Below are positions 44,380 to 44,509 of a stretch of DNA of 64,000 nt, piece by piece; position 1 is the stretch's first letter; each line of letters begins with the position of its first letter. The DNA is from Escherichia coli (GTDB lineage: Bacteria > Pseudomonadota > Gammaproteobacteria > Enterobacterales > Enterobacteriaceae). A model generated the notes under the pieces. It searched no databases, was not told the DNA's origin, and was given only the letters and a program-made list of their open reading frames with translations. The DNA is taken from NCBI RefSeq assembly GCF_048403405.1, contig NZ_CP183129.1; one strand, written 5' to 3'. Made by a program: the position numbers and the translations under genes.

Positions 44380-44509
44380 CCGTTCTCAACGGGGTGCCAC
44401 GCAGACGCGTGCGCTGAGAAAATACCCGTCGAACCTGATCCGGATAACGCCGGCGAAGGGATTTGAGGCTCCTTCTCAAGTCCTTTGCCACTCTTTTTTG
44501 AGGTGCAAA
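44380..44509 (+). promoter_or_regulatory. sroA: TPP (THI-box) riboswitch in thiBPQ 5' leader (SroA region)
   Basis: ggggtgccac...ctgagaaaatacccgtcgaacctgatccggataacgccggcgaaggga matches THI-element conserved core. Confidence 0.85.

Follow-up and report, generated by a model that had tools for sequence, protein, structure and literature searches.

The thiB (tbpA) TPP riboswitch in the thiBPQ leader of an Escherichia coli strain with a low-GC islet upstream

Does the thiamine transport operon of this Escherichia coli strain retain an ordinary TPP riboswitch in its leader, when a low-GC islet of 1,020 bp (43325..44344) lies just upstream of it? E. coli has three TPP riboswitches, of which that of thiB, also called tbpA, is one, and that of thiM is the model system for crystal structures. 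We analyzed a window of 64,000 nucleotides (the whole stretch of DNA considered here, to which all positions refer), in which the gene order is leuL, leuABCD, SgrS, sgrR, the islet and thiB-thiP-thiQ. The thiB gene (44510..45493, + strand), which has a GTG start, codes for the periplasmic thiamine/TPP-binding protein according to both the annotation and the NCBIfam equivalog model TIGR01276 (645 bits against a cutoff of 317). It is followed on the same strand by thiP (45469-47079; ORF and annotation) and by an ORF at about 47063-47761 that, from the ORF order and the K-12 operon, we take to be thiQ; these two genes would constitute the remainder of the regulated operon (45469..47761).

The aptamer and expression platform upstream of thiB

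A cmscan search with Rfam 15 recovered a match to the TPP riboswitch family RF00059 at 44380-44479 on the + strand, which spans model positions 1-105 of 105 and scores 66.1 bits, above the gathering score of 54.3 (E = 9.1e-11 for the whole 64-kb window, both strands and 4227 families). A local Rfam search returned the same match with E = 7e-13, and it is the only TPP match in the 64-kb window. The optional P3a hairpin is absent from the aptamer, as it is in K-12, and the remainder is aligned at high posterior probability. Reading the sequence directly, we located the CTGAGA motif at 44414-44419 and ACCTGATCCGGATAACGCCGGCGAAGGGA at 44433-44461. Both the conserved CUGAGA of the pyrimidine-sensing arm and the conserved ACCUGAUC..GG.UAA..CC..GCG.AGGGA of the pyrophosphate-sensing arm are thus found, and helices P1 to P5 can all be formed: P1 by 44384-89:44463-68, P2 by 44390-93:44425-28, P3 by 44396-402:44407-14, P4 by 44434-36:44457-59 and P5 by 44440-43:44450-53, with canonical pairing in 25/25 of the listed pairs and covariation in P3. 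The element lies in leader position on the same strand as the thiamine transport gene thiB, and RefSeq annotates a TPP riboswitch at the corresponding coordinates both in K-12 and in strain 4621, which is 99.9% identical to the window. A match to MIR8139 at 44455-44488 was rejected as due to chance (17.5 bits against a gathering score of 90, E 0.59). Two mechanically called ORFs over the leader (44242-44466, + strand; 44369-44491, - strand) were likewise set aside, as the invariant helices and the covarying P3 would fit an RNA rather than a coding region.

The aptamer as delimited by Rfam ends 30 nt 5' of the thiB GTG at 44510, and the intervening nucleotides 44480-44509, outside the Rfam model, form the expression platform with an anti-P1 strand, a sequestering stem and the Shine-Dalgarno (SD) sequence. 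The 3' strand of the anti-P1 or antisequestering stem occupies 44474..44489, as seen in the folds and in an alignment of 25 leaders, in which 93.8% of its cells are paired. Its position agrees with the 'linker nts 95-99' of the published work (PMC10578472). Its core is 44460-68:44474-82 and its extended form is 44452-59:44482-89, so that the stem competes with P1, with P4 and with the 5' strand of the sequestering stem. The latter (44483..44510) consists of CUUUGC at 44483-88 paired with GCAAAG at 44505-10, a 6-bp stem invariant in the 25 leaders, plus CUC at 44491-93 paired with GAG at 44500-02. In a fold with the aptamer enforced, it covers the SD sequence GAGG (44500-03) and the first base of the GUG. 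When the constraint is released, 44460-68 pairs with 44474-82 to give the anti-P1 stem, which in the fold of a 117-nt transcript extends to 44452-59:44482-89 and absorbs the 3' sequence of P4/P5 together with the 5' strand of the sequestering stem. A consensus scan found no terminator-like site on the + strand between 44380 and 44650, which fits the published in vitro transcription, in which only full-length product was obtained (PMC10578472). The SD-sequestering stem, the mutually exclusive anti-P1 stem and the lack of an intrinsic terminator together place the platform with translational OFF-switches of the thiB/thiM type.

The energy models have to be read with care. Folded alone and unconstrained, the aptamer adopts a non-native structure from which P1 is missing (z = -0.72), which is to be expected of a fold stabilized by ligand and tertiary contacts. 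In the full-length minimum free energy structure, a short anti-P1 stem and the sequestering stem coexist, so that energy models alone show no switch.

The initial annotation had proposed that a THI-element core just upstream of the thiB GTG belongs to the TPP riboswitch (SroA) of the thiamine ABC transporter, and it had named a cmscan against RF00059 as the check. That search gave a significant result; both motifs are present, and the GTG begins one base past 44509. The wider proposal is borne out by the family match, the RefSeq annotation, thiB downstream and a leader that differs from K-12 by two loop nucleotides. The aptamer match, the competing helices with their conservation, the near-identity to K-12 and the gene context are direct observations on this locus, and nothing contradicts the identification. 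Hence, we are virtually certain that the thiBPQ mRNA has its 5' leader at 44380-44509 and that this leader carries the E. coli thiB (tbpA) TPP riboswitch, of which SroA is the stable 5' fragment.

Rfam matches elsewhere in the window concern other RNAs. SgrS is present at full length (41377-41603, - strand, 229.8 bits), although close to its 5' end it lacks 5 nt of the Rfam consensus, and an overlapping ORF (41451-41750, - strand) codes for an SgrT-like peptide (MRQFYQHYF...). The REP-like nucleoid-associated RNA naRNA4 gave a gathering-level match of 67 bits at 8569-8646 (- strand), and STnc40 one of 81.7 bits at 9162-9231 (- strand) that ends in a terminator hairpin; both are unrelated to the riboswitch. 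A match to RF02797, 'Plasmid-encoded Shigella sRNA A (PssrA)', at 14878-14967 (- strand, 105.5 bits) falls on the core chromosomal ftsA-ftsZ junction, a region found in 5424/5426 E. coli genomes. This family hence appears to match the conserved 3' end of ftsA and 5' end of ftsZ, and nothing plasmid-specific.

Conservation of the leader and its promoter

Between 44345 (position -37) and the GTG, the window departs from K-12 at 44403..44404 alone, where it has AG in place of GT. These two positions, the sole differences in the leader, lie in the terminal tetraloop of P3 (CACGC-AGAC-GCGUG here against CACGC-GUAC-GCGUG in K-12), so that no pair is affected, and AG is likewise seen in genomes that lack the islet (H31, H32). 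The 168-nt segment comprising promoter and leader (44345-44512) was recovered in 5398/5426 complete E. coli genomes, with at least 95% identity in all but 2. Compared with the K-12 thiB (tbpA) riboswitch/SroA (RF00059; PMC10578472, PMC11487190), the locus, the P1, anti-P1 and sequestering helices, the SD sequence, the GUG and the downstream operon are the same. The differences are the P3 loop (AGAC against GUAC) and the sequence upstream of about -38, which in K-12 is the 3' end of sgrR and here is the end of the 1,020-bp espY2 islet, with sgrR displaced by 1 kb and a terminator-like hairpin in between.

A DNA-pattern scan of GTDB species genomes yielded 120 loci, of which about 27 from Enterobacterales have a thiB homologue directly downstream and, in most cases, sgrR upstream. 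We aligned 25 Enterobacterales leaders from about 15 genera, with the window and K-12 included. The pairs of the OFF state are paired in 94.4% and those of the ON state in 92.6%; with the partners shifted by 1-3 columns, pairing is 29-54%. Compensatory changes on both sides were seen in 5/7 of the P3 pairs. In P1, the 5' strand of P2, the 3' strand of anti-P1 and the 6-bp sequestering stem, by contrast, there is either no variation or variation on one side alone; the conservation of P1, P2, the sequestering stem and most of anti-P1 is hence uninformative as regards covariation. As the search pattern dictated the columns for 44414-61, P4, P5 and the 3' strand of P2 are invariant by construction. 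The P1, anti-P1 and sequestering stems are present and conserved across the genera. Two leaders were left out of the alignment, those of Kluyvera (L054:4064-4133) and Dickeya oryzae (L074:2297-2366). In both, the sequence 5' of CTGAGA cannot be aligned to the usual 5' strands of P1, P2 and P3 within 70 nt, and that of Dickeya oryzae contains repeated CATGTACG units in this region, which suggests that P3 has a large insertion or that the 5' half of the aptamer is displaced.

The alignment also bears on the promoter. We assign a putative -10 hexamer, TACACT (44370..44375), on the basis of the leader alignment and of its location, the published 5' ends lying 5-7 nt downstream; in 25/25 leaders its T, A, A and T positions do not vary, and most genera have TACAAT. 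A putative -35 hexamer, TTGCTG (44347..44352), read from the sequence with a 17-nt spacer to the -10, directly follows the islet junction here and the sgrR TGA in K-12. A simple sigma-70 scan did not call the thiB promoter, as the -35 matches at only 3/6 positions; accordingly, the candidate hexamers draw on phylogenetic conservation and on their position. Where E. coli has the -35 TTGCTG, Enterobacter, Lelliottia, Kosakonia and others have GCTTTCG, which comes right after the sgrR TAA (alignment columns 8-16; window 44345-44352). This abutment of the sgrR stop and the thiB promoter is thus conserved across the family and leaves no room for an sgrR terminator.

Transferring the published K-12 and Salmonella numbering to the window puts the start of the thiB mRNA and SroA at 44380..44382. 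Mapping G17, P1 nts 5-9/85-89 and linker nts 95-99 of Berman et al. sets +1 at 44380 (PMC10578472). The numbering of Grondin et al. assigns G35 to the G of CUGAGA (44416), G121 to the SD GAGG (44502) and U130 to the central base of the GUG (44511), so that +1 corresponds to 44382 (PMC11487190). The 5' RACE performed in Salmonella gave a start shared by SroA and tbpA 129 nt upstream of the GTG, at about 44381 (PMC3511261). For an islet-bearing strain, the transcription start supplements published for EDL933 list sgrR and hold no entry for thiB, tbpA or Z0077 (PMC10469882).

Mode of control and competing explanations

In the proposed mechanism, transcription would begin at about 44380-44382 from a constitutive promoter (-35 44347-52, -10 44370-75). 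With TPP bound, P1-P5 of the aptamer would be stabilized, and as P1 then holds 44463-68, the downstream strand would be unable to form the anti-P1 stem. The pairings 44483-88:44505-10 and 44491-93:44500-02 would then bury the SD GAGG and the GUG, blocking 30S binding and repressing thiBPQ. Conversely, without TPP, invasion of P1 and P4 by 44474-89 would create the antisequestering stem; as this stem would draw in the sequestering stem's 5' strand, the ribosome-binding site would be freed. The TPP response, the translational mode of control, the role of the anti-P1 intermediate and the start site are carried over from the literature on the K-12 sequence and would be expected to apply here. For that sequence, TPP-dependent repression has been demonstrated experimentally: regulation is lost in mutants of the aptamer, the SD stem and the linker, toeprints are inhibited and sensing is cotranscriptional (PMC10578472, PMC11487190). 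A secondary drop in the mRNA level has also been published, and the status of a Rho-dependent or other mRNA-level layer is disputed (PMC10578472 versus PMC5499598 and PMC11487190).

Related riboswitches show the same themes. The thiM element has the same aptamer class, translational repression by SD sequestration and an anti-P1 alternative, and the secondary structures of thiB and thiM are described as very similar in the thiB literature (PMC11487190). It differs in regulating another gene (thiMD) with another sequence, outside the window, and about 34 codons are needed for its mRNA-level effect as against 12 for tbpA (PMC11487190). The thiC element shares the ligand and the aptamer family, and its cotranscriptional sensing is delimited by anti-P1 formation (PMC11487190); it is larger, with Rho-dependent termination signals inside the riboswitch, and its Rho score is 12 against 3.0 for thiB (PMC5499598).

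Three other explanations have to be weighed against a functional, primarily translational switch acting in cis. With no more than 35 nt between the end of the islet and the aptamer, the THI-box might be taken for a chance match or a decayed remnant made non-functional by its neighbor. We consider this close to impossible and, in effect, already refuted: the model is matched over its full length with an E-value of 9e-11, the leader is the functional K-12 sequence bar 2 loop nucleotides, the -35/-10 region and thiB are intact, and the islet-bearing arrangement is stable in about 1033 genomes with the leader conserved. Far more serious, though still the less likely reading, is the view that the element acts mainly at the transcript level, with TPP leading to Rho-dependent termination or RNase-mediated decay within early thiB. 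The Rho termination score of 3.0 that RNAP ChIP in a rho mutant gave for thiB speaks for it (PMC5499598), as do transcriptional lacZ fusions with 12 thiB codons, which are repressed 1.6- to 3.9-fold by TPP even when the GUG is changed to GAG (PMC11487190); the first 12 codons here differ from those of K-12 by a single synonymous base (44527). Nevertheless, bicyclomycin left TPP repression unchanged, albeit in a shorter construct, and in vitro transcription revealed no truncated product (PMC10578472), the leader itself being devoid of a terminator-like site. Moreover, mutation of the SD sequence abolished the mRNA-level regulation (PMC11487190), which indicates that this regulation acts downstream of ribosome binding. 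Hence, translational control is likely to be primary and mRNA-level control its consequence, the latter being best seen as a secondary layer on translational control and not as an alternative to it.

Another question is posed by SroA, the stable 5' fragment of about 93-100 nt whose 5' end is the thiB transcription start and which is known from K-12 and Salmonella (PMC10578472, PMC3511261). We regard it as quite improbable that SroA acts in trans as a small RNA on its own set of targets, its riboswitch function being only part of its role, even though a stable short transcript has been detected in both E. coli and Salmonella. In the latter, strains deleted for sroA survived tigecycline less well and were less fit in mice, and the tbpA mRNA hardly changed when SroA rose (PMC3511261). 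Yet the targets on offer are TargetRNA predictions with p of about 0.006, none of them validated (PMC3511261), and altered thiBPQ expression could account for the phenotypes. The conservation of the aptamer core, anti-P1 and SD stem is fully explained by cis regulation, and nothing in the window bears on a trans role. The thiB (tbpA) TPP riboswitch of this strain is a well-studied element, intact and ordinary apart from the islet upstream. Its finding has little significance beyond correct annotation, since the mechanism has been dissected before and RefSeq annotates the element automatically.

The islet and the upstream context of the thiB promoter

The islet was delimited by composition and by comparison of the junctions with K-12 and E. 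albertii. Its GC content is 0.42, as against 0.55 in sgrR and 0.53 in thiB; homology to K-12 breaks at 43324/25 and resumes at 44345. We found it in 1033/5426 complete E. coli genomes (about 19%), O157:H7 included, counting genomes with a place that covers at least 80% of an islet-spanning query. The corresponding junction in E. albertii reads GGATCCATGATTGCTG, which is exactly the K-12 arrangement, and in every other outgroup sgrR ends about 70-215 nt before the CTGAGA core, as compared with 1,088 nt in the window. The compact sgrR-thiB order, in which the sgrR stop of E. albertii and all other outgroups abuts the thiB -35 region, is thus ancestral, and the islet is an insertion. A search for terminal direct or inverted repeats of at least 7 nt turned up only a trivial TTTTTTA, which provides no evidence for an insertion of the IS or transposon type.

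The insertion occurred between the last codon of sgrR and the -35 of thiB. Hence, sgrR (41671..43329, + strand, 552 aa; defined by the ORF list, tblastn, annotation and junction sequences) gained one residue, and the 35 nt at 44345-44379 that contain the -35/-10 were retained. The last sgrR codon and stop (GAG TAG; window 43315-43329) come from the islet junction, and SgrR ends in ...PPDPE* here, where K-12 and E. albertii have ...PPDP*. Within the islet, espY2 (43570..44139, - strand), an ORF of 189 aa annotated in RefSeq as 'T3SS effector EspY2', is divergent from thiB and convergent with sgrR. Its product has no sequence match in Pfam, NCBIfam or PDB, so that the name is owed to the RefSeq annotation. 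Between the stops of sgrR and espY2, a consensus scan marks a terminator-like GC-rich hairpin (43463..43482), scored on both strands. The sgrR-thiB islet exists in at least two forms, the second being about 0.5 kb longer (strain WP8-S17-ESBL-12, L003:1631-3168). In it, an EspY2 homologue with 77% amino acid identity is annotated as a pentapeptide-repeat protein and is split or pseudogenized. Both forms share the right-hand junction at the thiB -35.

The initial annotation had the 5' side of the riboswitch abutting the islet, which is roughly correct given the 35 nt that separate 44380 from the point at which K-12 homology resumes. Its further suggestion that the thiB promoter context may differ from that of K-12 stands for the sequence upstream of -38, where the islet replaces the 3' end of sgrR, and fails for the hexamers and the start site, which are the same as in K-12. 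With the junction at about -38 of the thiB promoter, the AT content over -60..-38 is 74% here against 39% in K-12, and the AT-rich islet DNA that replaces the GC-rich sgrR sequence is possibly UP-element-like or bound by H-NS. We tentatively raise the prospect, to which we give only a modest chance, that an islet at this position measurably alters thiBPQ expression in the approximately 19% of E. coli that bear it, leaving the riboswitch unchanged and making the transcription that it gates lineage-dependent. The islet would also remove any read-through from sgrR and would bring a divergent espY2 promoter region to within about 240 bp. This effector-gene islet, which was acquired horizontally and sits exactly between the stop codon of sgrR and the -35 of thiB, thus offers a natural comparison, in which the same core promoter and riboswitch stand in two upstream contexts, and this comparison could address the effect of upstream sequence and read-through on a riboswitch-gated operon.
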